64,000 nt of DNA, taken from assembly GCA_963695245.1 (NCBI GenBank), contig OY968770.1:805894-869893 (forward strand), read 5' to 3'. Source of the stretch: an uncultured Gammaproteobacteria bacterium. Lineage in GTDB: Bacteria > Pseudomonadota > Gammaproteobacteria > JBGSLN01. The translations under genes and the position numbers were made by a program. Positions 2,046-62,604 of the stretch are shown piece by piece; the first letter of the stretch is position 1, and the number at the start of each line of letters is the position of its first letter. The notes under the pieces were generated by a model. The model had not been told where the DNA came from and searched no databases. It was given only the letters and a program-made list of their open reading frames with translations.

Positions 2046-3400
2046 TATAAAATAAAATGGCTAAGATCTTCATCACCTACCAGATTCTGTAAATGCTCAT
2101 CTACGTAAGCCGCATCGACTTTATAGGATTTATGACTGTTGTCAGAAGCTTCAAAAGAAAGCTGCTCTAACAACCGCTCCATCACAGTGTGCAGTCGTCT
2201 TGCGCCAATATTTTCAGTTTGTTCATTCACTTGAAAGGCCAATTCTGCAATACGTTTGACTCCATCTTTGGTAAATTCAAGATTCACTTCTTCGGTTTGC
2301 AACAGTGCCTGATACTGCTCTGTTAAGGAAGCATCTGGTTCTGTTAAGATTCTTACAAAATCTTCCGCTGACAAGGCAGACAATTCTACGCGAATGGGTA
2401 AACGACCCTGTAACTCCGCAATTAAGTCCGAAGGTTTTGCCATGTGAAAAGCGCCGGATGCGATAAATAAAATATGATCCGTTTTGACAACACCATGTTT
2501 TGTGGAAACACTGCTGCCTTCTACTAAGGGTAGTAAATCCCGCTGCACCCCTTCACGGGACACATCAGCACCACTTGTACTTTCCCGTCGGGTGACTTTG
2601 TCGATTTCATCTAAAAAGACAATGCCGTTTTGTTCACAGTTTTCAATGGCTTGAGATTTGATTTCTTCTTCATTAATAAGTTTGGCCGCCTCTTCATCTT
2701 TTAAAATTTTAAAGGCATCTTTAACTTTTAATTTTTGCAGTTTTTTCTTCTCCGACCCCATACTCTGGAATAAATTCTGCAACTGACCGGTCATTTCTTC
2801 CATACCGGGCGGTGCCATGATTTCTACGCCAAACTGAGGCGAAGCTGATAATTTAATTTCAATTTCTTTATCATCCAAATTTCCTTCACGGAATTTTTTT
2901 CTAAAAACCTGACGAGTGCTGGATTCTTCTGCTTTTTTCTCTGGTTCTTCAGGTTCACCGTCAAATTTTGCTTTAGAGCGGGCAGGCGGTAATAACGCAT
3001 CTAAAATGCGCTCTTCTGCCGCTTCTTCCGCTGCGTATTGCACCTGTGTCATGGCTTTTTCCCGTTCCATTTTAACGGAAACATCTGCCAAATCCCGAAT
3101 GATGGAATCCACATCTCGGCCTACATAACCTACTTCCGTGAATTTGGTAGCTTCTATTTTAATAAAAGGGGCTTTGGCCAACTTTGCCAGCCTTCTGGCA
3201 ATTTCGGTTTTACCCACACCGGTAGGACCTATCATCAAAATATTTTTCGGCATAATTTCTTCGCGCATTTTTTCGTCCTCAATACGCGACCGTCGCCAGC
3301 GGTTACGAAGAGCAATGGCTACTGCCCGCTTTGCTTCTTTTTGTCCAATAATATGTTTGTCTAATTCAGATACAATTTCTTTCGGAGTCATCACTTCCAT
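2045..3400 (-). CDS. hslU: ATP-dependent protease ATPase subunit HslU
   Basis: 451 aa. [20 protein letters not shown]..., Walker [21 protein letters not shown] Shine-Dalgarno sequence about 9 nt upstream of the ATG. Confidence 0.97.
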
Positions 3401-3426
3401 TACTAAAACCTCTAAAATGAATGGGA

Positions 3427-3972
3427 TTAAATATCACTGTCTAATACTTCAATGGTGAGATTATGGTTGGTATAAACACAAATATCAGCAGCGATATTCA
3501 GACTGTTTTCCACAATGTCCCTGGCACTTAAATCGGTATGAGCAACTAACGCTCTGGCAGCAGATTCAGCAAAATGCCCACCAGAACCAATTGCCATTAA
3601 GTAGTTTTCAGGCTCAATTACATCCCCGTTACCGGAAATAATCAGGGAGGCTTCTTTGTCAGCAACACACAAAAGGGCTTCTAAGCGTCTGAGCATTTTA
3701 TCGGTACGCCAGTCTTTGGCCAGCTCCACGGCAGATCTCACCAAATGCCCCTGATGTTTTTGTAGTTTTGCTTCAAAACGCTCAAATAAAGTAAATGCAT
3801 CCGCGGTACCACCAGCAAAGCCTGCCAGCACTTTGTCATTATAAAGCCTTCTGATTTTGCGGGCATTCCCTTTCATCACGGTATTACCCATAGAAACTTG
3901 ACCATCACCACCAATCACAACTTTGCCTTTTTTTCGAACAGACAAAATGGTAGTACCTCTAAATTGCTCCAT
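3427..3972 (-). CDS. hslV: ATP-dependent protease subunit HslV
   Basis: [37 protein letters not shown]...GSGG. The ORF track starts at a TTG (3987). The first ATG gives [10 protein letters not shown]. The catalytic N-terminal Thr motif is GTTIL, so a short propeptide is possible. Confidence 0.9.
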
Positions 3973-4007
3973 GGTTGTTCTTCTCAATTTAACTGACTGA
4001 TTTTTTT

Positions 4008-4035
4008 ATATGGGGGTGAATATTTGAAATTCAAG
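4008..4035 (-). promoter_or_regulatory. Sigma-32 (heat-shock) type promoter upstream of hslV
   Basis: Minus strand reads CTTGAA-tttcaaatattca(13 nt)-CCCCATAT. This matches the sigma-32 consensus CTTGAA-N13-15-CCCCATnT. hslVU is a classical sigma-32 regulon member. Confidence 0.55.
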
Positions 4036-4125
4036 CGTTGCGCGTATTAAAGTTGCCACTTGCAAGTTCATCTGCTTTATTTTTTTGTGCTAAACTGGTT
4101 TTTATTGCTAATTTTACCATCCTTT

Positions 4126-6627
4126 ATGCTGCTGCTTATCCTGATTTTATTTGTCCTCATCGTTATTTTGTTTGGGCGCTTAAGTGTCTTAAACAATCGA
4201 GTTCGCTATTTAGAATCTCATACCCCATTGCCAAAGCAGCCTGTAACTGAACAAAAAGCTCCGTCTCTTACTAAAAAGATTAAATCTTCCCTCGAAAGCC
4301 CAAGAAAACCAAAGACTTTGAACGCACCTTTTTTCAATAAAATTAATCGCTTTCTTACCTTAACCAACAGTTTTGTAGCCATTGGTATGCTATTGCTGTT
4401 TTTTGGTGTTGCTTTTTTACTCAATTATGCCATTGCGGCAGGCTTACTTCCTTTGTCCATTCGATTATTGGGAATTTTTATTCTGGCAGTGGTGTTGTTT
4501 TTTACAGGTATCTACCTTGAGAAAAAGCGCTTTAACTATGCCGTGGTTTTAGAAGGTGGCGCTTTGGCGATTTTGTATTTATTGATTTTTGCCGGATTCT
4601 ACCTTTATGACTTAGTCTCAGCCATATTTGCCTTTGTGTTTTTTATCCTCTTAAGTGCTTTTACATTATATTGGTCCTTCAGGCGCAATCATAAAGCATT
4701 GGCTGTGATGGGCATTATTGGCGGGTTTTTTGCACCCGTTCTATTCAGCGCTCAAAGTCTGCCTGATATTTATTTGTTTTTGTATTATTTCATATTAAAT
4801 CTGGCTGTGTTTACCCTGGCCTGGTTTAAAAATTGGCGAGCACTGAATGTGCTTGGATTTATTTTTACTTTTTTAATCTCCACCCTTTGGTACGCCACCA
4901 GTTATTTCTATGTAATATTTTTGTGGGTATTTTTTGTTGAGTATCTCATCATTGCTCTACTCACTGCCCGTCATCAACCTGATTACAAACAAGGATTGGT
5001 GGAAGCCAGTCTGGTTTTTGCTTTGCCTGCCGTGGTTTTTTTATTGCAGGCTTTTTATGTGGATTTTCATAAAATACCACTGGCATACACCGCTGTTGCT
5101 TTAGGTACTGCGTATTTGCTGTTAAGTGCCTTTATGTATTATTACTTCAACCATGTCTATCGGATTTTGGCAGGCGCTTTTTTGGGTTTGGCTTTAATCT
5201 TTTTTACTCTGGCAGTGCCTTTAATACATTCTGGCAGTTGGGTTGAAAATATTTGGGCATTGGAGGCCATTGCTTTGATATGGGTAAGTCTGAAACAGCA
5301 TAGGCCCTGGTTGCGTTATGGTGGTTTGGCTTTACTTATATTTGCCGATGGCATTTTTTACTTAAGCAACGGCTTCGAGGTATATTTTATCCAGGCTTTG
5401 CTTTTGGATATTTTGATATTATTTTTAAGTCATATATTGATAGCCTATCAGTTGTGGCGTGGGAAATCTCAGATTAAAGTGCTGGAATATGCTTTAGCAA
5501 AAATCATTTTTGCCTTTGGTGGATTACTGTGGTTCTGGCTGCTGTATCAGCTTACTAAATATTATTTACCCATCAATTATGAAAATAAAGTCTTAATTAC
5601 CATGCTCAGTTTATCAGCGCTTTTGGCATTATTGATAGAAAAATGGTCGAACTGGCATTGGTTAAAAGGGTTTACTTTGAGTTTACCGCTATTCATTATA
5701 TTATTTGCTGTTAATAATTATACCACTGATAACGTATTTTTTTATGGTGACTATATGAATGGTTTTTGGTTGCTGCCATTTTTAGTCACTTATAGTGTGC
5801 TTAGCTGTTATGGCCGTGAGCCGGATAAGCCTCTGATAGTTTTCTGTCATTTCAGTACGTTTATTTTATTGATGTTTTTGTTGGCAGATTATATAAATCG
5901 AATGTTACTGCTGCCAGAGCATTTTAGCGTTACCTGGCGAGCTTGTTGTTTTGCGCTGGTGCCTGGGATATTTTTAATATTGCTTCAATTTAATCATCGT
6001 CTTTTGCAAAAACACTTTGGAACATATGTTATTTATTATCAAAAATCATTAACTTATCTTTTATTAGGCTACTTGTTTTTATGGCTGATTGTGGCAAATT
6101 TGTTTTGTTCAGGGGATCCATCGCCCTTAGCTTATCGGGTAATTTTAAATCCATTGGATTTTGTCAGCCTGACTGCTTTTATCATCACAGCTATCGGATT
6201 ATTTTATCCTGAAACAGGTGTCTTTCATTGTTTCAAAGGCTACAAAAAAACCTGGATTACCATTTTTGCGCTCACAGGCTTTGTTATATTAAATGCCATT
6301 ATTATAAGAGCCATTCATTTTATGTTAAACGTGCCCTGTGAATTTGATGCGATGTTACAATCGCAAATGCTCCAGGTAACTTTGTCACTGACTTGGTCCA
6401 TAACTGCTTTGGCATTGATGATTTCAGCACAGGCAAGAAAAAACCGTGCGCTGTGGTATGGAGGCGCTGCGCTTGCTTTTTTAACAATTTTAAAATTGTT
6501 TTCTCTGGATTTAAGTCACTCACAAACCCTGGAAAGAATTATTGCTTTTATTGGGGTGGGCGCGGTCTTACTGCTGGTGGGTTACTTTGCGCCGATTCCA
6601 CCGCTTTTGAAGCAATTGGATAAATAG
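4126..6627 (+). CDS. Large polytopic inner-membrane protein, DUF2339-like
   Basis: About 833 aa from the first ATG (the track start at 4060 is a TTG). N-terminal TM helix, then LSVLNNRVRYLE, then a Pro/Lys-rich linker and over 20 predicted TM segments. Architecture matches DUF2339. Confidence 0.55.
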   Translation: MLLLILILFVLIVILFGRLSVLNNRVRYLESHTPLPKQPVTEQKAPSLTKKIKSSLESPRKPKTLNAPFFNKINRFLTLTNSFVAIGMLLLFFGVAFLLNYAIAAGLLPLSIRLLGIFILAVVLFFTGIYLEKKRFNYAVVLEGGALAILYLLIFAGFYLYDLVSAIFAFVFFILLSAFTLYWSFRRNHKALAVMGIIGGFFAPVLFSAQSLPDIYLFLYYFILNLAVFTLAWFKNWRALNVLGFIFTFLISTLWYATSYFYVIFLWVFFVEYLIIALLTARHQPDYKQGLVEASLVFALPAVVFLLQAFYVDFHKIPLAYTAVALGTAYLLLSAFMYYYFNHVYRILAGAFLGLALIFFTLAVPLIHSGSWVENIWALEAIALIWVSLKQHRPWLRYGGLALLIFADGIFYLSNGFEVYFIQALLLDILILFLSHILIAYQLWRGKSQIKVLEYALAKIIFAFGGLLWFWLLYQLTKYYLPINYENKVLITMLSLSALLALLIEKWSNWHWLKGFTLSLPLFIILFAVNNYTTDNVFFYGDYMNGFWLLPFLVTYSVLSCYGREPDKPLIVFCHFSTFILLMFLLADYINRMLLLPEHFSVTWRACCFALVPGIFLILLQFNHRLLQKHFGTYVIYYQKSLTYLLLGYLFLWLIVANLFCSGDPSPLAYRVILNPLDFVSLTAFIITAIGLFYPETGVFHCFKGYKKTWITIFALTGFVILNAIIIRAIHFMLNVPCEFDAMLQSQMLQVTLSLTWSITALALMISAQARKNRALWYGGAALAFLTILKLFSLDLSHSQTLERIIAFIGVGAVLLLVGYFAPIPPLLKQLDK

Positions 6628-7093: not shown

Positions 7094-7197
7094 CCATGTA
7101 GGTTGGGCTGACGAAGAAATCCCAACAGGGTATTCATTTAATTACGGCCTTATTAAGTTGCCACGGCTGTTGGGCTTCCTTCGTCAGCCCAACCTAC
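7094..7197 (+). repeat. REPIN/MITE-like element copy 2
   Basis: atgtaggttgggctgacgaag...ggtattcatttaattacggccttattaagttgccacggctgttgggcttccttcgtcagcccaacctacat. The right-hand outer flank tgtaaatcgaag follows. Confidence 0.9.
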
Positions 7198-10043: not shown

Positions 10044-10150
10044 ATGTAGGTTGGGCTGACGCTTCGAAGCCCAACAGGGTATTCATTTAATTATGGCCTT
10101 ATTTAGTTGCCACGGCTTGTTGGGCTTCGAAGCGTCAGCCCAACCTACAT
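10044..10150 (+). repeat. REPIN/MITE-like element copy 3
   Basis: Arms gacgcttcgaag / cttcgaagcgtc. Followed by the outer flank ttgattttgaatgtaaatcgaag. Confidence 0.9.
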
Positions 10151-10898: not shown

Positions 10899-13280
<2,382 letters not shown>

Positions 13281-13426
13281 TCAGAGGCTTAATTTTTAAC
13301 ACTAACCTACTGATTTAGATAACATTTGAAGGTCTTATAGTATACCAATTTTTATTCAAAAAGGCCATTAAATCTACATATTTTGACATTATCTAAACTA
13401 ATATTACAAAACTGAAAAAACTATTA

Positions 13427-13530
13427 ATGTAGGTTGGGCTGAGGTCGGAAGCCCAACAGAGTATTCATTTAATTACGGCCTTATTTAGTTGCCACGGCCT
13501 GTTGGGCTTCCGACCTCAGCCCAACCTACT
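13427..13530 (+). repeat. REPIN/MITE-like element copy 4 (between recF and gyrB)
   Basis: Arms gaggtcggaagc / gcttccgacctc. Confidence 0.9.
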
Positions 13531-13568
13531 TTAATTATCGTAATTGAGACAAACTCATGAATTATATT

Positions 13569-13584
13569 TGTTCCACGTGAAACA
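13569..13584. promoter_or_regulatory. parS site 1 (ParB-binding centromere-like site)
   Basis: TGTTCCACGTGAAACA, exact match to the canonical parS 16-mer. Lies immediately 3' of the recF stop codon. Confidence 0.85.
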
Positions 13585-14676
13585 TTATCCAGAATTCGGC
13601 ATATCAAGCACAGTGTTATGTTTCACGTGGAACATTTTATGTTGCTTAAATACATTTTTAACTGAGGCTAATTGTGACTCACTGATACCACTAATAAAAA
13701 ATTGCCCTTCTAAATTTTTTAAACATTGAATGAATTGTTCTACTTTTGATTTGTCTAATTCAGCATGAATATCATCAATTAAAAAAATGGCTTGTTTCCC
13801 AGCTAGTTGATTGACTAACCGTGCCTGTGACAGACACATTAGCCAAACAAATAACTTTTGCTGGCCTCGGGAGAGTGCATCTACAATGGGTTTACGATTG
13901 ATAGTGATTTTGAGGTCTGCTCGATGAATACCATAAAATGTATAACCCAATTCTAAATCTTTTGAAATATTCTTTTGCAAAATTTCATCATATTGTAAAT
14001 CTTTACTCCATCCCTGATAAAAATCAATTTTTACATTTTCATAACAGTAATCCTGTAAAAATGATTTAAAAGGCGGAATAAACTGTTGTAAAAATTTCTG
14101 CCTTGCCTCAGTCACTTTATTAGCTGTTTTGATTAAGATCTCATTCCAGGCAGAAATGACATTTAGAGGTTGCCTCTGCCGAATCGCGAGATTCCTTTGC
14201 TGTAGCGCTTTTTGGTTCTTGCGCCACTGAGTTAAAAAAGAAGGTTCCACGTGAAACACACCTAAATCTATAAACTGTCTTCTAATTTTAGGACCTTCTG
14301 TTAAAAGAGAAAAGCTGTCATTATTTAGGATTTGAACCGGCAATATTTTCGAAATTTCTGCTACAGATACAAATTCACCATCTAATTTCTGATGGTTTAT
14401 CCCCTGATAATCTCTGGAAACCCCAATATTATGTAGTTTTTGTGTTGTATTAAGAAATTTTAAAAATACCAATAATCCATTTTTATCATCCTGTATTACT
14501 CGTTTAGTGAGATGCGTTCTAAAAGAACGACCAAAGCTGCATAAATAAATTGCTTCCAAAAAACTGGTTTTGCCGCTGCCGTTTTCACCATAGAATAAAT
14601 TTACTTCCGGATGAAGCCTGGCTTCTACCGATGAAAAATTACGGAAATGTTCAATTTTTATGAAATGGATGGGCAT
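13585..14676 (-). CDS. recF: DNA replication and repair protein RecF
   Basis: MPIHFIKIEHFRNFSSVEARLHPEVNLFYGENGSGKTSFLEAIYL... Confidence 0.96.
   Translation of the reverse strand: MPIHFIKIEHFRNFSSVEARLHPEVNLFYGENGSGKTSFLEAIYLCSFGRSFRTHLTKRVIQDDKNGLLVFLKFLNTTQKLHNIGVSRDYQGINHQKLDGEFVSVAEISKILPVQILNNDSFSLLTEGPKIRRQFIDLGVFHVEPSFLTQWRKNQKALQQRNLAIRQRQPLNVISAWNEILIKTANKVTEARQKFLQQFIPPFKSFLQDYCYENVKIDFYQGWSKDLQYDEILQKNISKDLELGYTFYGIHRADLKITINRKPIVDALSRGQQKLFVWLMCLSQARLVNQLAGKQAIFLIDDIHAELDKSKVEQFIQCLKNLEGQFFISGISESQLASVKNVFKQHKMFHVKHNTVLDMPNSG
13619..13634. promoter_or_regulatory. parS site 2
   Basis: TGTTTCACGTGGAACA, the reverse complement of site 1. 34 bp from site 1, inside the last codons of recF (MFHVKHN). 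Confidence 0.85.
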
Positions 14677-14690
14677 AACGGGTGAGATGC

Positions 14691-15791
14691 TTATATCCGC
14701 ATTGGCATAATAACATAAAGGGCATGGTTATCTTCAGAGTTCGATTCAATCTGCAAAGGGGTATTTGCATCCTGCATGGAAAAAATAATGTCACCATTTG
14801 GCAGGGCGTTTATCGCTTCCATAAGGTAACTTACATTAAAACCGATTTCAAAAGGCTCGAAGGCATAATCAATGGATATTTGCTCAAAGGCTTCTTCATG
14901 TTCTGAGTTATGAGCCTCAATATTGAGTTGATTATTTTCAAAATGAAATTTTACACCATGATACTTTTCATTGGATAAAACCGCAATTCGACTCAAGCTA
15001 TGTTTGATTAAATCTTTTTCAATTATAATTTGTTTAGAAGTATTTTTTGGAATGACTTGTTGATAATCTGGAAAAGCACCATCAATCAGTTTGGTAATGA
15101 GTAAATAGTCTTCTCCCCGAATCCTAAAATGATTATCATCAAATCCTACCGAAACCAGCTCATCACTATGTTGCAGAATTCTTAAAAACTCTAGTACAGC
15201 TTTTCTGGGTAAAATACAGGCCATGTCTTGAGCATCTAAACTGAGTAAATGTTTAGAAAAAGCTAATCGATGCCCATCGGTAGCCACGACTTTTAATTGA
15301 TCAGATGATTTCATCAAATAAATACCGTTTAGATAATACCTGACGTCCTGTTGAGCCATAGAAAAATAAACATTTTCCAAAAGAGTTTTAAAGATACTCT
15401 GTGAAATCTGAAAATCAGACTCCGCTAAATTTCCCTGCACATTAGGAAAATCTTCTGCTTTTAAAACTGATAATTTAAAACGACTGCGTTCACAAGCAAG
15501 TATTAACTGTTCATTATCAAGCGTAAAATGAATCATAGTCTCAGGCAGAGCTTTGACAATATCAAATAATTTGCGAGCAGGCACAGTAATTGCCCCACTG
15601 ACAGCCACTGATTCTAAAGCTGTACGTGCCTGTAGCTCGATTTCCAAATCAGTAGCAATTAAATGAAGGATATCATCCTGTATTTTTAAAAGCACATTAG
15701 AAAGAATAGGCATTGACTGCCTTTTTTCCACGGCTCCCATAACTTTTTGCAGACTGTTTAAGAGTTTGTTTTTTAAGACGCTAAACTGCAT
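14691..15791 (-). CDS. dnaN: DNA polymerase III subunit beta
   Basis: 366 aa beta-clamp. MQFSVLKNKLLNSLQKVMGAVEKRQSMPILSNVLL... Confidence 0.97.
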   Translation of the reverse strand: MQFSVLKNKLLNSLQKVMGAVEKRQSMPILSNVLLKIQDDILHLIATDLEIELQARTALESVAVSGAITVPARKLFDIVKALPETMIHFTLDNEQLILACERSRFKLSVLKAEDFPNVQGNLAESDFQISQSIFKTLLENVYFSMAQQDVRYYLNGIYLMKSSDQLKVVATDGHRLAFSKHLLSLDAQDMACILPRKAVLEFLRILQHSDELVSVGFDDNHFRIRGEDYLLITKLIDGAFPDYQQVIPKNTSKQIIIEKDLIKHSLSRIAVLSNEKYHGVKFHFENNQLNIEAHNSEHEEAFEQISIDYAFEPFEIGFNVSYLMEAINALPNGDIIFSMQDANTPLQIESNSEDNHALYVIMPMRI

Positions 15792-15846
15792 TTTATTCTC
15801 ACACTGAAGATTGTACCTAAAATAATAAAATCAAAACTTACAATGA

Positions 15847-17271
15847 TTAACTGGTCAGTAACCGTAACAGGTTTGTGAAGTCCTCTGCAATATCATTGTC
15901 ATCCTTTTTCAATTCCAAAATTTTACGGTGGGCATGAATAACCGTGGTATGATCCCGTCCTCCAAAAGCATCTCCAATTTCAGGAAGACTGTGACTGGTC
16001 AACTCCTTAGCTAAACTCATAGCAATCTGTCTGGGTCTGGCAACCGAACGACTCCTTCGCTTTGAGAGTATATCAACGACCTTAATTTTGTAGTATTCGG
16101 CCACGGTTTTAATAATGTTATCAATGGAAACTAATTTATCCTGTAGGCTTAATAAATCCTTCAAAGACTCTTTAACCAACTCTAAGGAAATAGGTTTCCC
16201 TGTAAAATATGCATGGGCACTTACTCTTTTTAACGCCCCCTCTAATTCTCTAACATTTGAACGAACCCGCTTGGCAATGAAAAAAGCCACATCATTAGGT
16301 AATTCAATATTAATCTGTTCTGCTTTACTCATCAAGATTGCCACCCGAGTTTCAAGCTCCGGTGGTTCAATAGAAACCGTTAATCCCCAACCCAATCTTG
16401 ACTGCAATCTTTCCTCAACACCTCTGATTTCTTTAGGGAACCTGTCGCTGGTTAAAATAATTTGCTGTCCACCTTCCAGTAAAGCATTAAAAGTGTGAAA
16501 AAATTCTTCTTGTGAGCGATCTTTACCTGCAAAAAATTGAATATCATCAATGATTAACACATTCACACTTCGATAATAATGCTTAAAATCATTAATGCGG
16601 TTGGTTTGTAATGCTTTAACCATATCCGCCACAAACCGCTCAGAATGCAGATAGACAACTTTGGAAAGCGCATTTTCCTGCATAATTAAATTACCCACTG
16701 CATGACATAAGTGCGTTTTACCAAGTCCGACTCCCCCATATACAAACATAGGATTGTATGCTTTGCCAGGATTTTGAGCTACCTGAAGTGCTGCAGCGCG
16801 AGCAAGCTGATTAGATTTACCTTCTACAAAACTTTCAAAAGTAAAAGTAGGGTTAATATTATGCTCGTGTTTAATATCATTTATTTGGATTTTTCTTTCA
16901 GGGCTGGTTCTGACAAAATTATTCACAGCCTCAATATTAACAATTCCACTGGAAGGTTTTTGCTTTTCCCCAATTTTAAGTAAGATTTTAAAATCACAAG
17001 TTTTTTGCTCTTCAATCATCAGATGCTTAAGCTGCTCATGGATTCTTGCCATGTATTTTTCCTTAATCCATTCAAGAACAAATTGATTGGGCGCATAAAG
17101 GGTTAAACTATCTTCAGCAAGACTCTCTGCCTGTAAAGGCCGTAACCAAGTGTTATAAGACTGTTCTGACTCATTTGAAGCCAGTTCCTGCTTAAGTCGT
17201 TGCAGACATTTTTCCCAAATATTAAGCACAAGATTCCCCAATAAGCTGTTGATAAGTTGTGAGTAGCGCAC
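15847..17271 (-). CDS. dnaA: Chromosomal replication initiator DnaA
   Basis: AAA+ ([10 protein letters not shown]) and C-terminal DNA-binding domain (…[14 protein letters not shown]). The start at 17271 is a GTG. An in-frame GTG 16 codons downstream ([12 protein letters not shown]) is an alternative. Confidence 0.96.
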
Positions 17272-17478
17272 TGAATAACCTGTAGAATAACAAAGTCTAC
17301 CTTAAGTTATCCACAGAAAATTTAACTTATTAACAGAAGCAGTTAGGTTATACACAGGGTAAAATATTAGTTAAGCCTATGTTAAGTCATTATTTTCTAG
17401 GCTTTTCCACAGAAAAAACTTACTTAATAATAATATAAAATAAAAATACTTTATATATATTAATAAAATACAGAATCA

Positions 17479-17515
17479 ATGTAGGTTGGGCTGACGCAGG
17501 AAGCCCAACCTACAT
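17479..17515. repeat. Solo REP-like hairpin (single arm) inside the oriC region
   Basis: atgtaggttgggctgacgcaggaagcccaacctacat. 13-bp perfect stem, 9-nt loop. Confidence 0.8.
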
Positions 17516-17562
17516 TGATTAATTTCGTTTTTAATACGAAGAAGACGTAAATCTTATTTAAG

Positions 17563-17591
17563 TTGACATTAAGCCACAAGAACTGTAACAT
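17563..17591 (+). promoter_or_regulatory. Predicted sigma-70 promoter of the rpmH-rnpA-yidD-yidC-mnmE operon
   Basis: TTGACA - 17 bp - TAACAT, about 35 nt upstream of the rpmH ATG. Confidence 0.5.
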
Positions 17592-17626
17592 CTGCCGGCT
17601 AAAAGTTTATTTTTTGAGTAGGCAAG

Positions 17627-17761
17627 ATGAAAAGAACATTTCAACCCAGTAATCTTAAAAGAAAAAGAGATCATGGATTTAGAGCCAGAATGGCGACCCG
17701 TAATGGTAGAAAACTAATTAATCGTCGTAGGGCGAAAGGTCGTAAGCGTTTAACTGCTTAA
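17627..17761 (+). CDS. rpmH: 50S ribosomal protein L34
   Basis: 44 aa, [44 protein letters not shown]. Below the ORF-track size cutoff and found by reading the sequence directly. Confidence 0.95.
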
Positions 17762-17767
17762 TTAACC

Positions 17768-18118
17768 GTGTATCGCTTTACCCGGGAAAGCAGGTTGTTA
17801 AAAGCTAAAGCTTTTCAGCAGGTTTTTAAAAAAGGTATAAAAAAATACCATAAGGGTATTAGCGTCATTGCAGCCAGGAATGATCAAAACTCAGCAAGAC
17901 TTGGTTTTGCTATCAGTAAGAAACAGGTAAAAAGAGCCTGTGATCGCAATACTTTAAAACGAATTGCACGAGAAGTTTTCAGGCATCAGCAAAATGAATT
18001 AACCGGTATTGACTTCGTAGTTTTGGTGAATAAAACGTGCTTAGAACACAAAAAACTGGATTTACATCATTACTTTCAAACAGTATTCATCTCTGTAGTC
18101 AAATGTCTGTCCGAATAA
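17768..18118 (+). CDS. rnpA: Ribonuclease P protein component
   Basis: 116 aa, GTG start as in E. coli rnpA. ...RLGFAISKKQVKRACDRNTLKRIAREVFR. Confidence 0.9.
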   Translation: MYRFTRESRLLKAKAFQQVFKKGIKKYHKGISVIAARNDQNSARLGFAISKKQVKRACDRNTLKRIAREVFRHQQNELTGIDFVVLVNKTCLEHKKLDLHHYFQTVFISVVKCLSE

Positions 18119-18339
18119 TCATCCTTATCATCAAATTGTATCGATTGCTATTAAGTCCATTAATTGGACAAAAATGTCGATTTTATCCAAGCTGTTCTAA
18201 ATATAGTGAAACAGCATTTATGCAACATGGTGTCATCCGTGGTATCTGGCTTACCCTTAAGCGCTTAGCCAAATGCCAACCCTTACACCCAGGGGGATTT
18301 GATCCCGTACCTCAAAAACCATCAAGTCAGAGAGTTTAA
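18103..18339 (+). CDS. yidD: Membrane protein insertion efficiency factor YidD
   Basis: MSVRIIILIIKLYRLLLSPLIGQKCRFYPSCSKYSETAFMQHGVIRG. Overlaps the rnpA 3' end as usual. The track start at 18037 is rejected. Confidence 0.85.
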   Translation: MSVRIIILIIKLYRLLLSPLIGQKCRFYPSCSKYSETAFMQHGVIRGIWLTLKRLAKCQPLHPGGFDPVPQKPSSQRV

Positions 18340-18341
18340 TT

Positions 18342-20069
18342 ATGGAACAGGCCCAAAGAATTTTTTTATATGCAGCTTTATTCGTTGTGGCATTTTTTCT
18401 GTGGCAATCCTGGAATCGATATAGCGAACATTTGCCTAAAACTACTTTTACTCATCAAAGTACACAACAAGTATCAGATGAAACAACCAAAACCACTGAT
18501 AACCAAACCACCAGCTCCAAAGAATCGGCAAATGCTGCAAATTCAAATAATTTTTCTAATGCTCCAGCTTTCAATGCTGTTGCTAAAACGAAAACCAGTA
18601 ATCTTCAATCAATACCTAAAAGTCGATTGATTGAAGTTAACACGGATGTATTCAAAATTGGTATAGATACCAAAGGCGGGAATATTGTTTCTTTAAAACT
18701 AAAGAAATTTCCTGTATCTCTAAAAGAAAAAGATAATCCTTCCGTTTTACTCACAGATAAGCCAGAAAAATTATATATTGCTGAAAGTGCATTAATGGGT
18801 AAAGCCGGTCCTGACACTCGCACGCAACTGGCGCAGTATAAAGCTTCTGCCAAAAGCTATACGCTGACCAACAATGAACTCAAAGTTAATTTAATCTGGA
18901 CGAATCCACAAGGGGTGGAAGTTGTTAAAACTTATACCTTCAAAAAAGACAGCTACCTGATTCATGTAGCTTATAATGTTACCAACAATAGTTCAAAACC
19001 TTGGACTGGACAATTTTACAGTCAGTTGACCCGTAAAAACGTCAAAGAAAGCGGTACTCACTTATTTCAGATTCATCCGTATTTTGGCGCAGCCATTTCC
19101 AGCCCGCAAAAGCGCTATGATGAAGTTAGTTTTAAAGATATGAAATCAACGCCCATTAATCAAAGCACAAAAGATGGTTGGGCAGCTATGGTACAAAGAT
19201 ATTTTGTCAGCGCCTGGGTGCCAGATGCAGATAAAACTTTCCATTATTATAGTAAGGCAAGTGCCAATGATATTTATACCATTGGTATGGCAAGTAATCC
19301 GATTACCGTAAAACCTGGCGCCACAGTCACTGTGGGTTCTAAACTTTACTCAGGACCTGAAGTTACCTCAGTTCTAAAAAGTATCGCACCAGGGCTTGAG
19401 CAAACCGTCAGTTACGGTTGGTTATGGTTCATCTCTGTGATTGTTTTTTGGGTCATGGCTAAAATTTACTGGGTTGTCGGTAACTGGGGCTGGTCGATTA
19501 TTTTAGTCACTGTGCTCATCAAGCTAATCTTTTTTCCTTTGTCTGCTAAAAGCTATAAATCTATGGCGAGAATGCGGGGCTTACAACCTAAAATTAAAGC
19601 TTTAAGAGAGCGCCATGCGGATGATAAGCAAAAACAATCTCAAGCAATGATGGAATTGTATAAAAAGGAAAAAGTAAATCCTGTGGGAGGCTGTTTACCC
19701 ATTTTGGTACAGATTCCCGTATTTTTTGCACTTTATATGGTACTGATTGAAAGTGTACAGTTACGCCAGGCGCCATGGATTTTATGGATTCATGATTTAT
19801 CTGTGCCAGATCCTTATTTCATTTTGCCGGTGTTAATGGGGATCACCATGTTTGTTCAGCAAAAATTAAATCCACCGCCACCGGATCCAACCCAGGCTAA
19901 GGTAATGATGTTTTTACCGGTAATTTTTACCGTGCTGTTTGCCTATTTTCCTGCTGGTTTGGTACTTTACTGGGTGGTTAATAATGGGTTATCTATTTTG
20001 CAGCAATGGTATATTACTCGGAAAGTAGAAGCTGACGAGAAAAAAAATAAATATCGAAAGAAAAAATGA
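18342..20069 (+). CDS. yidC: Membrane protein insertase YidC
   Basis: 575 aa. N-terminal TM, large periplasmic domain, conserved C-terminal 5-TM core. Confidence 0.95.
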   Translation: MEQAQRIFLYAALFVVAFFLWQSWNRYSEHLPKTTFTHQSTQQVSDETTKTTDNQTTSSKESANAANSNNFSNAPAFNAVAKTKTSNLQSIPKSRLIEVNTDVFKIGIDTKGGNIVSLKLKKFPVSLKEKDNPSVLLTDKPEKLYIAESALMGKAGPDTRTQLAQYKASAKSYTLTNNELKVNLIWTNPQGVEVVKTYTFKKDSYLIHVAYNVTNNSSKPWTGQFYSQLTRKNVKESGTHLFQIHPYFGAAISSPQKRYDEVSFKDMKSTPINQSTKDGWAAMVQRYFVSAWVPDADKTFHYYSKASANDIYTIGMASNPITVKPGATVTVGSKLYSGPEVTSVLKSIAPGLEQTVSYGWLWFISVIVFWVMAKIYWVVGNWGWSIILVTVLIKLIFFPLSAKSYKSMARMRGLQPKIKALRERHADDKQKQSQAMMELYKKEKVNPVGGCLPILVQIPVFFALYMVLIESVQLRQAPWILWIHDLSVPDPYFILPVLMGITMFVQQKLNPPPPDPTQAKVMMFLPVIFTVLFAYFPAGLVLYWVVNNGLSILQQWYITRKVEADEKKNKYRKKK

Positions 20070-21418
20070 TCCTTGATGCTGACACAATTGCAGCCATCGC
20101 CACGCCTCCTGGTAAAGGAGGCGTTGGCATTATTCGAATTTCAGGCACAAAATCCCTCATGATTGCCAAACATATTACTGGCAAAAACCTATCTGCCCGA
20201 CAAGCTACACTGACTAAATTTAAGGGAAAAGAAGGGGTACTGGATGAAGGCATTGCGATTTATTTTCAGGCACCGAACTCCTTTACTGGTGAAGATGTGG
20301 TTGAATTACAGGGACATGGCGGCCCTGTGGTGATGGATTTACTGTTAAATGAAGTTCTCAATCTCGGCGCTAAAATGGCCAAAGCCGGTGAATTCAGTGA
20401 ACGGGCTTTTTTAAATGATAAGCTGGATTTAGCACAAGCAGAAGCAATTGCGGATTTGATAGATTCTGGTTCACAAAAAGCTGCAAAGGCAGCCATTCAA
20501 TCTCTGCAGGGTGTTTTTTCCAAAAAAGTTCATTCAGTGACAGAACAATTAATTCATATCAGAACATTTGTAGAAGCAGCCATTGATTTTTCTGATGAAG
20601 ATATTGAAAGTTTAAGCTGTGAAAATTTAGCGAAGAAAATCTCTCAACTGTTAGCAGAATTAAAAAACATTCAAACACAGGCAAATCAGGGACAATTGCT
20701 AAGGGAAGGTATTAATGTTGTAATTATTGGCAAACCCAATGCAGGAAAATCCAGTTTACTGAATCAGTTGGTAGGCAATGAAACGGCAATTGTTACCGAT
20801 ATTGCTGGAACCACGCGCGATGTATTAAAAGAATATATTCACATTGAGGGTTTGCCCATACACATTATTGATACGGCTGGTTTACGAAAAACTGAAGATA
20901 TTGTGGAACAAAAAGGCGTGGAACGGACTTTAAAACAGGTGGAGCGCGCTGATATGATCATTGCAATGTTTGATGCCTGTGAGTTTGAAACTCAAGTTGT
21001 AAAAAATCTTTTAGCTGACTGGCAGGTTAATTTAAGTGATGCCATTATTGTTAAAAATAAAATAGATTTAACCGAAGAATCTTCAGGGACAAGTATTGAA
21101 AATCAAATGCAAATCATAAAAGTTTCCATAAAAAATAACACGGGGCTTGAGGATTTGAAGCAGGAGATAAAAGCAAAAGCAGGATTTCAAAGTGGTGAAG
21201 CCGGCACTTTCAGTGCCAGACGCAGACATTTGGTTATTTTAGCCGAAGCTGAAAACTGTATTGAGCAAAGTTATCAGCAATTAACCCAAAATCAGGCATT
21301 GGAGCTGGTAGCAGAAGAGTTGATGCAGGCACAAAAAGCTTTAGGCAACATCACCGGTGAATTCAGTTCAGATGATTTACTGGGGGAAATTTTTTCAAAC
21401 TTTTGTATAGGGAAATAA
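20066..21418 (+). CDS. mnmE: tRNA modification GTPase MnmE
   Basis: 450 aa. G-domain ([18 protein letters not shown]) and C-terminal CIGK. ATGA overlap with the yidC stop. Confidence 0.95.
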
Positions 21419-34682: not shown

Positions 34683-35816
34683 ATGAACTTGCAGGAACTG
34701 GAAAAATTTTTAATCCTATGGCACGCCCCACAACTGGGTTATGCACATATTCAAAGTATTCTTGAACACTTCCCCAAAGTGGATGATTTTTTAGCCCAGT
34801 CATCTGAACAATTGCAGACTTTAGGTTTAAAACCTGTCACAGTGCAGCATTTAAAGAAGCCAGATCTTAGTCAAATAAAAAAGACCTTGCAGTGGTCTTT
34901 GCAAAATGATCAACATTTGTTGACGTTTTACTCACCGGATTATCCACAGTATCTTAAAGAAATTGCCAGTCCACCGCCCCTGTTATTTGCCAAGGGCAAC
35001 AAGACACTATTTAAGTACGCCAAAATAGCCATGGTGGGTAGTCGTAACCCTTCAGTGAACGGATTGGATATGGCGGCCAATTTTTCCCGACATTTGAGTC
35101 AGCAGGGATTTGTTATTGTCAGTGGCATGGCCATGGGAATTGATGCTGTGGCTCATGAAGCTTCTATTGATAGTACTATTGCAGTACTTGGCACGGGTAT
35201 TGATGTGATTTATCCAAAGTCAAACTTAAAACTGGCTGAAAAAATTATAGAAAAAGGCTTAATGATTTCAGAGTTCCCATTGGGTACCCAGCCCAAACCA
35301 CAAAATTTTCCCCGACGAAATCGTATTATCAGTGGGTTATCTCTCGGAACCTTGGTGGTAGAAGCTGCTTTGAAAAGCGGTTCTTTAATTACAGCAAAAT
35401 ATGCTTTGGAACAGGGACGTGAAGTCTTTGCCATGCCCGGATCAATTCACAATCCTCTTGCGAAAGGCTGTCATAAGTTATTGAAACAAGGCGCAAATCT
35501 TGTGGAGTCCATGGAGGATATCTGGCAACACTTCCATGACTCTCCGCTTGTTCTGAATAAAAATGCTCAAAAATCTGTAAAAGGGCTTGACATTAATCAG
35601 AATATACCCCATATAAAGCTTAATGTTAATACACTCACTCAGTCGAAACAGGCATTGCTCGAGGCCATGGGCTCTGATAGGATAACTTTAGACGCTTTGT
35701 CCATTAAACTTTCAATGAGTATTCAGTTGCTTAGCGCGAATCTGCTCGAACTTGAACTTGCAGGGTATATTATTAAAGTACCCGGTGGGGTGCAAAGGGC
35801 ACCTCCCACGTATTAA
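34683..35816 (+). CDS. dprA: DNA processing protein DprA (Smf)
   Basis: 377 aa from MNLQELEKFL. Rossmann-like core (...IAMVGSRNPS...GMAMGIDAVAHEA...). Confidence 0.9.
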   Translation: MNLQELEKFLILWHAPQLGYAHIQSILEHFPKVDDFLAQSSEQLQTLGLKPVTVQHLKKPDLSQIKKTLQWSLQNDQHLLTFYSPDYPQYLKEIASPPPLLFAKGNKTLFKYAKIAMVGSRNPSVNGLDMAANFSRHLSQQGFVIVSGMAMGIDAVAHEASIDSTIAVLGTGIDVIYPKSNLKLAEKIIEKGLMISEFPLGTQPKPQNFPRRNRIISGLSLGTLVVEAALKSGSLITAKYALEQGREVFAMPGSIHNPLAKGCHKLLKQGANLVESMEDIWQHFHDSPLVLNKNAQKSVKGLDINQNIPHIKLNVNTLTQSKQALLEAMGSDRITLDALSIKLSMSIQLLSANLLELELAGYIIKVPGGVQRAPPTY

Positions 35817-39290: not shown

Positions 39291-39394
39291 ATGTAGGTTG
39301 GACTGACGCAGGAAGCCCAACAGTGTTACATTTAATTACAGCCTGGTTTAGTTGTCACGGCTTGTTGGGCTTCCTGCGTCAGCCCAACCTACAT
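39291..39394 (+). repeat. REPIN/MITE-like element copy 8
   Basis: Arms gacgcaggaagc / gcttcctgcgtc. Variant centre. Confidence 0.9.
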
Positions 39395-44222: not shown

Positions 44223-44326
44223 ATGTAGGTTGGGCTGAGGTCGGAAGCCCAACAGGGTATTCATTTAATTATGGCCTCATTTAATTGCCACGGCCGTTGG
44301 GCTTCCGACCTCAGCCCAACCTACAT
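44223..44326 (+). repeat. REPIN/MITE-like element copy 10
   Basis: Preceded by the outer flank acttcgatttacagtcaaaatca. Confidence 0.9.
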
Positions 44327-47391: not shown

Positions 47392-47497
47392 ATGTAGGTT
47401 GGGCTGAGGAAGGAAGCCCAACAGAGTTATTCATTTAATTACGGCCTTATTTAGTTGCCACAGCCTGTTGGGCTTCCTTCCTCAGCCCAACCTACAT
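47392..47497 (+). repeat. REPIN/MITE-like element copy 12
   Basis: Arms gaggaaggaagc / gcttccttcctc. Preceded by the outer flank acttcgatttacatgcaaattca. Confidence 0.9.
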
Positions 47498-47547
47498 TGA
47501 ATAAAACTGGAATCTTGCGTAAGTTCTGTACAATTAATTTATTTTTT

Positions 47548-48204
47548 ATGAATCCATTAGAAACCCTTATTCACGAACCGACTCATAAAGCCGAGTATGC
47601 TGTCATCTGGCTTCATGGGCTGGGAGCGGATGGTCATGATTTTGAACCTTTGGTGCCTCAGTTAAATTTAAAAAATGTTCGATTTATTTTCCCCCATGCC
47701 AGGGTGCAACCCGTGAGTTTAAACATGGGTATGCCCATGCGAGCCTGGTATGATATTTATGCTTTGGATTCAAGCGCAAAAGAAGACGAAGCAGGCATCC
47801 ATTCAAGCCAAAAGTTAGTGGAACAACTTATTTATACGCAGGTGGAAACAGGCATTCAAGCTGAGAAAATTTTTCTGGCAGGTTTTTCGCAAGGCGGTGC
47901 CATGGCATTGCACACAGCATTGCGTTTTGACCATACCCTTGCAGGCGTTATTGCTTTATCAGCTTATCTGCCTGTAAGAAATCATTTAGGCGCTCACTTA
48001 AATCCAGCTCAAAAAAATACGCCAATTTTTATGGCTCATGGACAATATGATGAAGTATTGCCTGTAAGCTTTGGTCATGGTTCGCAAATGTTACTGCAAA
48101 GTTTGCACTTGAAGGTTAGCTGGTATGAGTATCCCATTGGTCACAGTGTTTGTATGGAAGAAATTGCCGAAGTTAAGCGCTTTATTTTACAAAACAGCCG
48201 CTAA
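47548..48204 (+). CDS. Carboxylesterase/phospholipase-family alpha/beta hydrolase (Abhydrolase_2, YpfH-like)
   Basis: 218 aa from MNPLETLIHEP. ...VIWLHGLGADGHDF..., nucleophile elbow GFSQGG, and a C-terminal His. Confidence 0.8.
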   Translation: MNPLETLIHEPTHKAEYAVIWLHGLGADGHDFEPLVPQLNLKNVRFIFPHARVQPVSLNMGMPMRAWYDIYALDSSAKEDEAGIHSSQKLVEQLIYTQVETGIQAEKIFLAGFSQGGAMALHTALRFDHTLAGVIALSAYLPVRNHLGAHLNPAQKNTPIFMAHGQYDEVLPVSFGHGSQMLLQSLHLKVSWYEYPIGHSVCMEEIAEVKRFILQNSR

Positions 48205-51035: not shown

Positions 51036-51059
51036 TGTTATTTATGTTATTATTGTTAT
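51036..51059 (+). promoter_or_regulatory. Three tandem 9-bp direct repeats (TGTTATnnn) overlapping the predicted promoter of the toxin-like gene; candidate operator
   Basis: TGTTATTTA TGTTATTAT TGTTATAAA, 22-45 bp upstream of the ATG at 51081. Confidence 0.4.
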
Positions 51060-51080
51060 AAAAGGCATAATAATTAAAAA

Positions 51081-51482
51081 ATGGATATCATAATTACTAA
51101 ATGGGCTTTAGATGCTTATCTTAATTTAAAACATCAAGGCGTTTTTACCCAGGATGAATTTGAACAAATAATTCAACCGGATGTTTTATTATTAAAACAA
51201 TTCCCTCAGCATCCAAAGTTTTTAAATGGAAAATTTTGGTCTTTTGCAAGTTTAAAAGGGCAGACTAGGATTTTGCATGGTTTTAAAATGAAGTGGCACC
51301 AAATCGGTAGCGGTAAAGTGCAATTGAGATTGCCAATTATGCAATATAATCATCAGAGTTTTCTTTGTGAAGCCTATGTAAAGCATAACCATAAAGTAGA
51401 TGCCAGAAAACTTGCTAAGTTTAAAGTTCACATACAGTTAATTATGCAGGGAAACTATAAACACTGCGGAGTTATAACATGA
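51081..51482 (+). CDS. Hypothetical protein; putative toxin component of a two-gene TA-like module (family not recognised)
   Basis: 133 aa, basic. 4-nt ATGA overlap with the downstream HTH gene. Confidence 0.4.
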   Translation: MDIIITKWALDAYLNLKHQGVFTQDEFEQIIQPDVLLLKQFPQHPKFLNGKFWSFASLKGQTRILHGFKMKWHQIGSGKVQLRLPIMQYNHQSFLCEAYVKHNHKVDARKLAKFKVHIQLIMQGNYKHCGVIT

Positions 51483-51985
51483 ACGCTTTTGCTTTTTCAC
51501 ATAACCAACTTACAGCTCATGAGCAGGTAAACCTATACGTAATTGCTCATCAAATGAAACAAAATGGTTTACCTGAAGAATTCATAGCATCCGTAATAGC
51601 ACTGGCATTTGAGTTTGAGGGAATTTTTGATCTTTTGAAATTATGGTCAGCAGAATGTGATGATATCGAAAGACAGGAAATCATTGCAGAGATGCAAGAA
51701 TTGATGCATGACTGTATGGATCCTGATAAACAAAAATTCATCGAAATTAAGCTTAATGACCTAGAGCTCATTGCAAAAAACATAAGAGCATTTAAAGATA
51801 ATTTATTGACAGAAGTAAACGCTCGTGGGGGAATATCAAAATTATCTGAACTAACGCAGATCCCGCAGCCTTCTTTATCAAGATTTTTTAATTCTGGTTC
51901 AATGCCACAACGAATTACCTTACTCAAGATAGCTAAAGCGCTGGAATTGGATGCTGTGAAAATTGTGTTACCGTGGGTGAAATAG
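51479..51985 (+). CDS. XRE-family HTH protein (C-terminal helix-turn-helix); putative antitoxin/regulator
   Basis: 168 aa. The C-terminal ~60 aa (GGISKLSELTQIPQPSLSRFFNSGSMPQRITLLKIAKALELDA) is a Cro/C1-type HTH. The N-terminal ~105 aa is acidic and of unknown fold. Confidence 0.55.
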   Translation: MNAFAFSHNQLTAHEQVNLYVIAHQMKQNGLPEEFIASVIALAFEFEGIFDLLKLWSAECDDIERQEIIAEMQELMHDCMDPDKQKFIEIKLNDLELIAKNIRAFKDNLLTEVNARGGISKLSELTQIPQPSLSRFFNSGSMPQRITLLKIAKALELDAVKIVLPWVK

Positions 51986-51994
51986 AAATAATCC

Positions 51995-52393
51995 CTAACA
52001 ACCCTTCCAGACAAAGTACCGATAGCTCAAAAAATTAGTCAGACTGCCAAGCGCCATGCCGATAAAAAGCAGCAAATTACTGATGATAAAAGTGGTTCCC
52101 AAAAAATAAGACCCCACATGCATAATAATAATCTGCAGAGCCATGGAAATCAGCGAAAAACCATTAAATTTTGCCAAAGACTTAAGCCAGAGGCGAAGAC
52201 CACTGGTTTTAGCAATTTTATTTTCATGGAACGTAAAGCAATTATGTAAAAAGAAATTGGTTATAATGGCACATTCTATGGCAATTGCGATGGCCAAAGC
52301 AGGTGATAGATAGAATATCAGTAAATTAAAGCTAATAAGCTGTACCAGCATACCGCCCATGCCGATGCAGCACATTTTGATAAATTGACCCAT
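51995..52393 (-). CDS. GtrA-family membrane protein
   Basis: About 132 aa from MGQFIKM (the track start is a TTG). 4 TM helices. ...NFFLHNCFTFH... is a GtrA-like motif. Confidence 0.65.
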   Translation of the reverse strand: MGQFIKMCCIGMGGMLVQLISFNLLIFYLSPALAIAIAIECAIITNFFLHNCFTFHENKIAKTSGLRLWLKSLAKFNGFSLISMALQIIIMHVGSYFLGTTFIISNLLLFIGMALGSLTNFLSYRYFVWKGC

Positions 52394-52498
52394 AATGGCT
52401 GTAAAAGAAGTTTGCAAAATAATGCAATGAATTTAACAGCTTTTCAATAAAATATTTTAGCTAACTACTCTCCTGCTTATCGTATGTTCTGTACAAAT

Positions 52499-52508
52499 CT
52501 GATATAAT
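52499..52508 (+). promoter_or_regulatory. Extended -10 element (TGaTATAAT) upstream of mnmG
   Basis: ctGaTATAATtgcc, about 40 nt upstream of the mnmG ATG. No good -35. Confidence 0.35.
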
Positions 52509-52548
52509 TGCCAAATTTCTGAACAAAAATTGGCGTATGAGCATTATT

Positions 52549-55873: not shown

Positions 55874-55886
55874 AATTTGGGAACAA

Positions 55887-62440: not shown

Positions 62441-62540
62441 ATGTAGGTTGGGCTGTTAAGCCCAACAGCCGTGGCAATTAAATAGTGTCGTTATTAAATG
62501 AATACTCTGTTGGGCTTCCTTCGTCAGCACCAACCTACAT
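62441..62540 (-). repeat. REPIN/MITE-like element copy 14 (reverse orientation; one arm shortened as in copy 1)
   Basis: atgtaggttgggctgttaagcccaacagccgtggcaattaaatagtgtcgttattaaatgaatac... Confidence 0.85.
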
Positions 62541-62604
62541 TGAAAATGTCAACAATTTATGTTGGAGAAGAACAACACTTTTATGTAATATTACCTTTAA
62601 AATA

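Follow-up and report, generated by a model that had tools for sequence, protein, structure and literature searches.

The spacer at 17230-17626, between the divergent genes dnaA and rpmH, is very probably the chromosomal replication origin of this gammaproteobacterium, an oriC of the rpmH-dnaA ('oriC1', Pseudomonas-like) location type. Positions refer to the window, i.e. the whole stretch of 64 kb that was analysed. An origin of the ancestral rpmH-dnaA type had been proposed here in the sequence-only reading, and the present analysis upheld the proposal: a DUE (DNA unwinding element) adjoins a correctly oriented R1, the array of DnaA boxes is contiguous, rpmH points outward and an IHF-like site lies at 21 bp. 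Its further basis is the presence of the module in all five relatives compared, a skew switch of origin sign within the window whose interval includes the spacer, and the lack of an alternative upstream of gidA in the window. The features of the locus are as follows.

15847..17229, minus strand: dnaA coding sequence, likely start GTG 17229 (the mechanical ORF reaches GTG 17271)
17247..17255, minus strand: R4-like DnaA box, TTATCAACA, one mismatch, opposite in orientation to the other three boxes, 17 bp ahead of the dnaA start
17307..17315, plus strand: R3-like DnaA box, TTATCCACA, perfect
17348..17356, plus strand: R2-like DnaA box, TTATACACA, exact TTWTNCACA
17372..17384, minus strand: IHF-like site, TAACATAGGCTTA, two mismatches to WATCARNNNNTTR, conserved C 21 bp from R1
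17403..17411, plus strand: R1-like (DUE-proximal) DnaA box, TTTTCCACA, exact TTWTNCACA
17412..17478, no strand: predicted DNA unwinding element (AT-rich block), 67 bp, from AT content and a simplified SIDD model
17424..17435, minus strand: candidate DnaA-trios TAT-TAT-TAT-TAA, (NAN)4, 12 bp from R1
17474..17520, no strand: long palindromic REP singlet, core 17481-17513, GTAG-GTTGGGC-loop-GCCCAAC-CTAC
17563..17591, plus strand: rpmH promoter, TTGACA (17563-17568), a 17-nt spacer and TAACAT (17586-17591), directed away from the DUE
17627..17761, plus strand: rpmH (ribosomal protein L34), followed by rnpA, yidD, yidC and mnmE (Pfam labels on syntenic relatives)

As the yardstick for an oriC we took the Weigel 2025 preprint, which lists a DUE, a reverse box within ~2 turns, an outward gene, a contiguous array, optional trios, and IHF. 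Overall, the spacer agreed with this list at every point or nearly so. We weighed the origin reading against the explanation, which we consider unlikely, that the module is merely the dnaA promoter/autoregulatory region or a decayed former origin and that the active oriC lies elsewhere, as in E. coli, whose dnaA has kept DnaA boxes after oriC moved away.

The spacer separates a gyrB-recF-dnaN-dnaA cluster on the minus strand (10899-17229) from the opposed plus-strand genes rpmH-rnpA-yidD-yidC-mnmE (17627-21418), in a genome with a base composition of 62% A+T. DnaA (P0001) carried the Pfam domains DnaA_N, Bac_DnaA and Bac_DnaA_C, and its C-terminal DNA-binding signature was present. Alignments with homologous DnaA proteins begin at residues 5-7 of a query starting at 17238, and a GGGGA Shine-Dalgarno sequence lies upstream of GTG 17229; the dnaA start is therefore more likely GTG 17229 than GTG 17271. 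As a result the spacer, previously delimited as 17272-17626, extends from 17230 to 17626 and takes in a fourth box, so that the divergence of dnaA and rpmH stood and the left limit did not. At the other end, the rpmH promoter TTGACA-17-TAACAT that had been pointed out earlier was recovered at 17563-17591, matching at 10 of 12 positions. The TTGACA is kept beside rpmH in the relatives, including L084, in which rpmH is separated from the origin module. As the published description of an oriC asks, rpmH and its promoter are directed away from the DUE. A consensus scan of the minus strand found no dnaA promoter. With the DUE placed on the left, the order is rpmH (outward), rpmH promoter, REP palindrome, 67-bp AT block, trios, a 12-bp spacer and R1', and then 21 bp to the C of the IHF-like site, R2', R3', the inverted R4' and 17 bp to the dnaA GTG.

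Exact TTWTNCACA sites numbered 16 in the 64-kb window, both strands counted. Three DnaA boxes, one of them perfect, had been claimed for the spacer, and each was found where the list above places it, exact to TTWTNCACA; together they span 105 bp on one strand. The chance that three of 16 random sites fall inside 113 bp is ~0.005, and 0.0013 if the same strand is required. When one mismatch was allowed there were four boxes in 165 bp, and with up to two mismatches the spacer held seven, compared with 2.2 expected. Read with the DUE on the left, R1' is TGTGGAAAA, R2' is TGTGTATAA, R3' is TGTGGATAA and R4' is TTATCAACA. The reverse complement of R1, TGTGGAAAA, is an exact TGTGNAWAA, and the AT block begins 1-12 bp away, an arrangement that the Weigel preprint treats as mandatory; relative to the DUE, R1 is oriented as in E. 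coli R1 and the R1 of Pseudomonas oriC1-type origins. Studied origins have at least five boxes (PMC4285127), and the four strong boxes of the spacer (at most one mismatch) fall below that number, which favours a dnaA-regulatory region. The enteric rpmH-dnaA spacers, which are non-origins, argue the other way, as these dnaA regulatory spacers have a single box and no adjoining DUE, unlike the present spacer, whereas Pseudomonas-type spacers have a DUE and a reverse R1. The R4-like box at 17247 probably closes the DnaA-binding array on the right, serves as a dnaA autoregulatory operator, or both. No boxes were found in the other spacers of the 17.4-26.5 kb interval. Three boxes at 34739-35218 were rejected as an origin and put down to chance; they lie within the dprA coding sequence, are spread across 480 bp and have no DUE.

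The earlier description of a nearly pure A/T block of ~58 bp held up. At 17421-17478, 53 of the 58 nt are A or T, and the overlapping 58-mer at 17413-17470 (55/58) has the highest A/T content in the window (runner-up 50/58). Melting was calculated using our own simplified re-implementation of SIDD, with copolymeric energies and at most two open runs, which differs from the published SIST program. At a sigma of -0.045 the predicted G was below 3 across 17412-17478, and at -0.04 the AT block was the sole site in 64 kb with G below 1 kcal/mol. G of the block decreased from 7.7 to 1.0 as sigma went from -0.02 to -0.04, indicating that the predicted opening depends on superhelicity. In the positive control, Pseudomonas-type rpmH-dnaA spacers, the model gave a single dominant site adjoining a reverse R1, and in the negative control, enteric dnaA spacers (with oriC elsewhere), just scattered minor sites. 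All five relatives showed a dominant site as in the window. That the strongest predicted melting site in 64 kb adjoins a correctly oriented R1 speaks against a region with a role in dnaA regulation alone. In P. aeruginosa, opening in vivo takes place 18-46 bp from R1, between dnaA and rpmH (PMC5109545), and this region corresponds to the core of the AT block of the window.

In gammaproteobacterial oriCs, the conserved C of an IHF site lies 21 bp after R1 (Weigel preprint). The IHF-like site of the window is a weak match in AT-rich DNA (the background of such matches is 1.5% per position) though at the exact offset, and its placement at this canonical 21-bp distance is a point against the dnaA-regulatory explanation. 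The candidate trios follow the published DnaA-trio pattern with its spacer rule of 10-13 bp (PMC8287927), and they also fit the optional description of three or more NAN units 0-16 bp from a box; at 95% A/T this pattern discriminates weakly, and we regard the trio evidence as weak because the sequence is AT-rich. GATC does not occur in the dnaA-rpmH spacer (0 compared with 0.76 expected by chance), so that the spacer is without 13-mers of the Dam/SeqA type.

The module was compared in five metagenomic relatives with flanks, whose DnaA proteins are 72-77% identical to that of the window. Their spacers have diverged (mean column identity 58%), and yet the order and orientation of the AT block, the R1 position, the IHF-like site, R2, R3, the inverted R4 and dnaA are kept in all five. 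The three shared boxes are spaced by 41/42 bp and then by 59/60 bp (49 in L082 and L084), and the R1-R2 interval is 55 bp in the window, L085 and L086. At the R4 position four relatives carry a perfect TTATCCACA and L086 has TTATTCACA, with one mismatch. The R3 position, 41-42 bp from the next box, is common to all five, being perfect in three and with one mismatch in L084 and L086, and the R2 position reads TGTG[T/G]ATAA in all six aligned sequences. L085, L082 and L084 each carry the IHF-like site at the exact 21-bp offset with a single mismatch, for which the background (at most one mismatch) is 0.18% per position. L084 has an insertion of three genes that parts the module from rpmH; there the AT block and the boxes remain with dnaA, and the inserted gene adjoining the DUE is also transcribed away from it.

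Three points count against the origin reading, and the first and third of them favour the dnaA-regulatory explanation. Only the two closest relatives keep a good R1, with one mismatch; in the other three its position is degenerate (three to four mismatches). Overlap of the array with the dnaA promoter is unavoidable, and part of the conservation could thus stem from autoregulation. In addition, Legionella-like MAGs, with a DnaA identity of 64-65%, have no box cluster upstream of dnaA. This result implies that relocation of the origin occurs in the nearby part of the tree; the location is not universal nearby, and the oriC call therefore cannot be derived from synteny alone. A repeated 'downgrading' of oriC1 is described in Halomonadaceae (Weigel preprint), which points the same way. 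The closest named DnaA proteins among the matches listed are those of Legionella, Aquicella and Ketobacter, at 64-65% identity, and searching metagenomes with the variable N-terminus of DnaA added no close relatives, just one distant locus (35% identity).

Raw GC skew in the 64 kb mostly reflects gene orientation, and for this reason we used a per-gene regression of G versus C on orientation with an added side term. The orientation-corrected skew of the window showed a switch of origin sign, with the plus strand G-rich rightward, that was supported at breakpoints between 17.4 and 26.5 kb. At the pre-specified point 17428, 2dLL was 8.8 for all sites and 7.9 for third positions, compared with 2.1 at 35 kb and 0.3 at gidA (52.5 kb). 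The permutation P for a switch anywhere was 0.05-0.10, and the best-fit point lay at 23-26 kb rather than in the spacer. A constant skew offset, without a switch in the window, did not improve the fit. Thus the in-window skew backs the oriC reading, and is supportive, not decisive. The weakness of the switch within the 64 kb is a point for a dnaA-regulatory region, whereas its sign, that of an origin, and an interval that covers the spacer are points against. The gene mnmG (gidA) lies at 52537-54444, and its upstream spacer (52418-52536) is only 119 bp long and held no DnaA box; a gidA-linked origin is therefore not present within the window. The skew switch was also unsupported there, and the nearest AT-rich block (51039-51096) showed weak melting, so that a gidA-upstream origin was rejected. 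The absence from the window of an oriC2-type site upstream of gidA again counts against the view that the active origin is elsewhere and in favour of the oriC reading of the spacer.

A REP palindrome lies beside the DUE. The copy at 17479-17515 is ATGTAGGTTGGGCTGACGCAGGAAGCCCAACCTACAT. Flanks included, the stretch 17474-17520 folds into a hairpin with a perfect stem of 19 bp and a loop of 9 nt (DNA dG -20.5 kcal/mol, z = -10.7). The window holds 13 full copies of this repeat family (96-103 bp) and one further short copy, a density of about one copy per 4-5 kb in AT-rich intergenic DNA; the REPs of the family carry GTAGGTTGGGC. Each full copy consists of two inverted GTAG-GTTGGGC-loop-GCCCAAC units flanking a spacer of ~40 bp and folds as a single long hairpin (dG ~-43 kcal/mol, z -12 to -13.5). 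All 13 doublets are intergenic or overlap merely dubious ORF starts. One published search rule for REPs asks for a hairpin whose stem is fully paired over 7 bp or more and whose loop is 2-5 nt, with GTAG or GTGG located 0-2 nt to its 5' side (PMC6006769), and GTAG is the guide tetranucleotide of the RAYT/TnpA-REP transposases (PMC3337134, PMC6006769). In every good copy GTAG directly precedes GTTGGGC...GCCCAAC, i.e. a REP head followed by a stem of at least 7 bp. Judged by these features, the full copies have a REPIN architecture.

The short copy had been described as a single-arm copy of the repeat family, which was right; more precisely, it is a long palindromic REP singlet with the a-palindrome-a^c form. 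In the core at 17481-17513, 28 of 29 nt are those of the left REP (39293-39321) of the full copy at 39293-39392, and the terminal CTAC then follows directly. Such a-palindrome-a^c singlets have been ascribed to excision of the REPIN centre, and one such event was seen in sequencing reads (Bertels & Rainey, PMC3337134). By this likeness, the REP at 17481-17513 appears to be the footprint of a REPIN after putative centre excision. An independent Logan contig (ERR12040027) was identical to positions 13504-17503 of the window, both of its ends breaking inside REP copies, which shows that the REP copy is not an assembly artefact. The REP was absent from the loci of all five relatives, where the homologous place has a different, unalignable linker in each, suggesting that it is specific to the lineage of the window. 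No RAYT gene was found among the 30 window ORFs scanned, and no Rfam family matched the REP or any other part of the window.

The REP starts 67-69 bp from R1 (the flanked palindrome 62 bp), which leaves a full-length DUE of 67 bp intact, and 49 bp separate the other end of the REP from the rpmH -35 hexamer downstream. The sequence-only reading had the palindrome lodged inside the origin: it does lie between the DUE and the rpmH promoter, but at the outer edge of the module, in a linker that varies across the relatives. We found no evidence for an effect of the REP on either unwinding or rpmH transcription. As an intrinsic terminator it was rejected, being without a T tract. We judge it quite unlikely that the palindrome has a function in the origin or in the control of rpmH, be it that of a GC-rich clamp or cruciform restricting or competing with DUE opening, of a binding site for a protein, or of an insulator separating the rpmH promoter from the DUE. 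Extrusion of a cruciform is favoured where an inverted repeat lies beside AT-rich DNA, and a perfect inverted repeat with a 19-bp stem is found in just this setting here, adjoining the DUE at 62 bp from R1. However, the REP is missing from all five relatives that retain the origin module, the linker that contains it varies in sequence and length in every relative, and the 67-bp DUE persists at full length between R1 and the REP. Towards rpmH, the end of the REP lies 49 bp upstream of the -35 and at about -85 from the likely transcription start, and a terminator-like T tract is lacking. Since AT-rich intergenic DNA of the window harbours members of the family at intervals of about 4-5 kb, neutral insertion accounts for the REP, which is probably a neutral, lineage-specific insertion/excision scar outside the conserved module. 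A more elaborate idea, to which we give very little credence, is that the DUE, single-stranded at each initiation, may be a preferred substrate for RAYT, whose action depends on ssDNA, that a REPIN was inserted and excised at the DUE border, and that the palindrome then became a GC clamp or cruciform setting the outer limit of unwinding or modulating supercoil-driven opening near the rpmH promoter.

A chance coincidence of a box cluster and an AT block is made easier by a genome of 62% A+T, which has many AT-rich spacers, NAN trios and loose matches to IHF sites, but the cluster probability of ~0.005 (0.0013 on the same strand) and the retention of positions, orientations and spacings while the surrounding spacer diverged leave it next to no probability, and conservation of the module effectively refutes it.

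From the motifs found, with their orientation, spacing and conservation, together with the predicted melting and the in-window skew, we infer how the oriC could bind DnaA and IHF, unwind and fire. DnaA would occupy the array R4' (17247, inverted)-R3' (17307)-R2' (17348)-R1' (17403), and IHF at the IHF-like site between R1' and R2' would bend the DNA, upon which a DnaA oligomer could extend from R1' across the adjacent trios. This oligomer would then open the 67-bp AT block at 17412-17478, which would serve as the helicase loading site, with transcription of rpmH heading away from the DUE. The box closest to dnaA probably has a second role in dnaA autoregulation. A REPIN may have inserted into the variable linker that joins the DUE to the rpmH promoter and then lost its centre, so that a 33-bp REP palindrome remains at the outer border of the DUE.

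These results provide a well-supported predicted origin annotation for a gammaproteobacterium whose DnaA is only ~65% identical to those of its closest named relatives among the matches listed. They suggest that the ancestral rpmH-dnaA module (DUE, R1, IHF-like site and array) has been retained in a little-studied clade, while nearby Legionella-like genomes are without the cluster at this place. The parts and layout are ordinary for a gammaproteobacterial oriC, which makes the annotation sound and unsurprising; the compact box layout differs from those of Pseudomonas and E. coli. This compact four-box layout, conserved over six sequences, could serve comparative studies as a small model of a minimal origin in Gammaproteobacteria. 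That a REPIN can apparently insert and excise at the border of a DUE without destroying the module is a curiosity rather than a surprise.

Compared with known mobile repeats, the window family resembles RAYT-mobilised REPs and REPINs in its GTAG head 5' of a short palindrome, in the inverted REP doublets of its full copies and in being extragenic and numerous, and the short copy resembles, in its a-palindrome-a^c form, the long palindromic REP singlets of P. fluorescens SBW25 (Bertels & Rainey 2011). It differs in the loop of the single REP, which is 9-11 nt in the window and 2-5 nt in the published rule (PMC6006769), and in having no RAYT among the 30 window ORFs scanned, its mobility being putative. 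With oriC of E. coli (mioC-gidA) the spacer shares the succession of DUE, R1 and 21 bp to the IHF site, oppositely oriented terminal boxes, an outward flanking gene, the DnaA DNA-binding signature and the TTATCCACA box, whereas its locus is at dnaA and not at gidA, GATC 13-mers are absent and recognisable boxes are fewer. Closer in location is Pseudomonas oriC1, the rpmH-dnaA origin reportedly described by Yee and Smith in 1990. Both lie between divergent rpmH and dnaA genes, with a single dominant AT-rich DUE on the rpmH side adjoining a reverse R1, an array that extends towards dnaA, the rpmH promoter beside the DUE and no GATC/13-mer Dam features. However, the Pseudomonas boxes are at approximately -342<, -225>, -210>, -163> and -78< and those of the window at -182<, -127<, -86< and -26>, the module from DUE to R4 is ~230 bp in the window compared with ~340 bp, and a second, gidA-linked oriC2 was not found in the 64-kb window. 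As the box layouts differ, the origin of the window shares with Pseudomonas oriC1 the location type and the logic of DUE and R1, and is not a member of the Pseudomonas family at the sequence level.

Thirteen doublets, each 96–103 bp, and two short palindromic singlets of the REPIN-like family were located between positions 1582 and 62538 of the 64 kb window, a dense spacing of approximately one copy per 4–5 kb. Each doublet is an inverted pair of the unit GTAG-GTTGGGC-loop-GCCCAAC, and one copy occupies the recF/gyrB gap within the dnaA-dnaN-recF-gyrB cluster. Examples of the family, together with the second singlet and its degenerate neighbour, are as follows.

1582-1679, degenerate full copy
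1706-1738, second short palindromic singlet, TAAGGTTGGGCTGACAAAGGAAGCCCAACCTAT
7098-7197, REPIN-like copy
10046-10148, REPIN-like copy
13429-13529, REPIN-like copy
28318-28417, REPIN-like copy
39293-39392, REPIN-like copy
44225-44324, REPIN-like copy

The singlet at 1706-1738, in which the GTAG/CTAC ends have decayed, lies 27 bp from the degenerate full copy. No gene for a RAYT, the transposase associated with such elements, was found among the scanned ORFs of the window. An independent short-read contig from the same organism (L081, run ERR12040027), corresponding to window positions 13504-17503, has both of its ends within REP copies, indicating that the family breaks assemblies of this genome.

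Several gene starts in the window probably need revision. The ORFs at 26529-28334, 47455-48204 and 62485-63582 overlap REPIN-like copies at their starts, where they are probably over-extended. The dnaA call, which begins at GTG 17271, is probably 14 codons too long; the corresponding database protein P0001 (474 aa) likewise begins at this codon, DnaA homologues begin near the GTG at 17229, and under the extension 17229-17271 a conserved inverted DnaA box (17247-17255) would fall in coding sequence. Since parB as listed (55728-56774) overlaps parA (55085-55873) by 146 nt, its true start is probably farther downstream.

Directly upstream of mnmG, three small ORFs (51081-52417) gave weak or no family matches, one of them having an HTH_3/antitoxin-like C-terminus. 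They adjoin an AT-rich block (51039-51096), and the trio may represent a small inserted cassette.

DnaA-box-like 9-mers were also seen away from the candidate origin, three of them on the plus strand at 34739-35218, within the dprA coding sequence, including a perfect TTATCCACA at 34940. As these are scattered across 480 bp and an AT block is absent, we attribute them to chance.

In the Legionella-like MAG loci L001, L003, L004 and L010 (DnaA identity 64–65%), a DnaA-box cluster upstream of dnaA is absent; in L004, rpmH lies 1.3 kb from dnaA with no DnaA box in the interval. The origin of these lineages may be located elsewhere. The metagenomic relative L084 (73% DnaA identity) has the origin module, with three genes (glycosyltransferase family 2, FdtA-like and FAD oxidoreductase) inserted at 2441-6000 between it and rpmH, so that the rpmH promoter and the DUE, neighbours in the usual arrangement, are parted.
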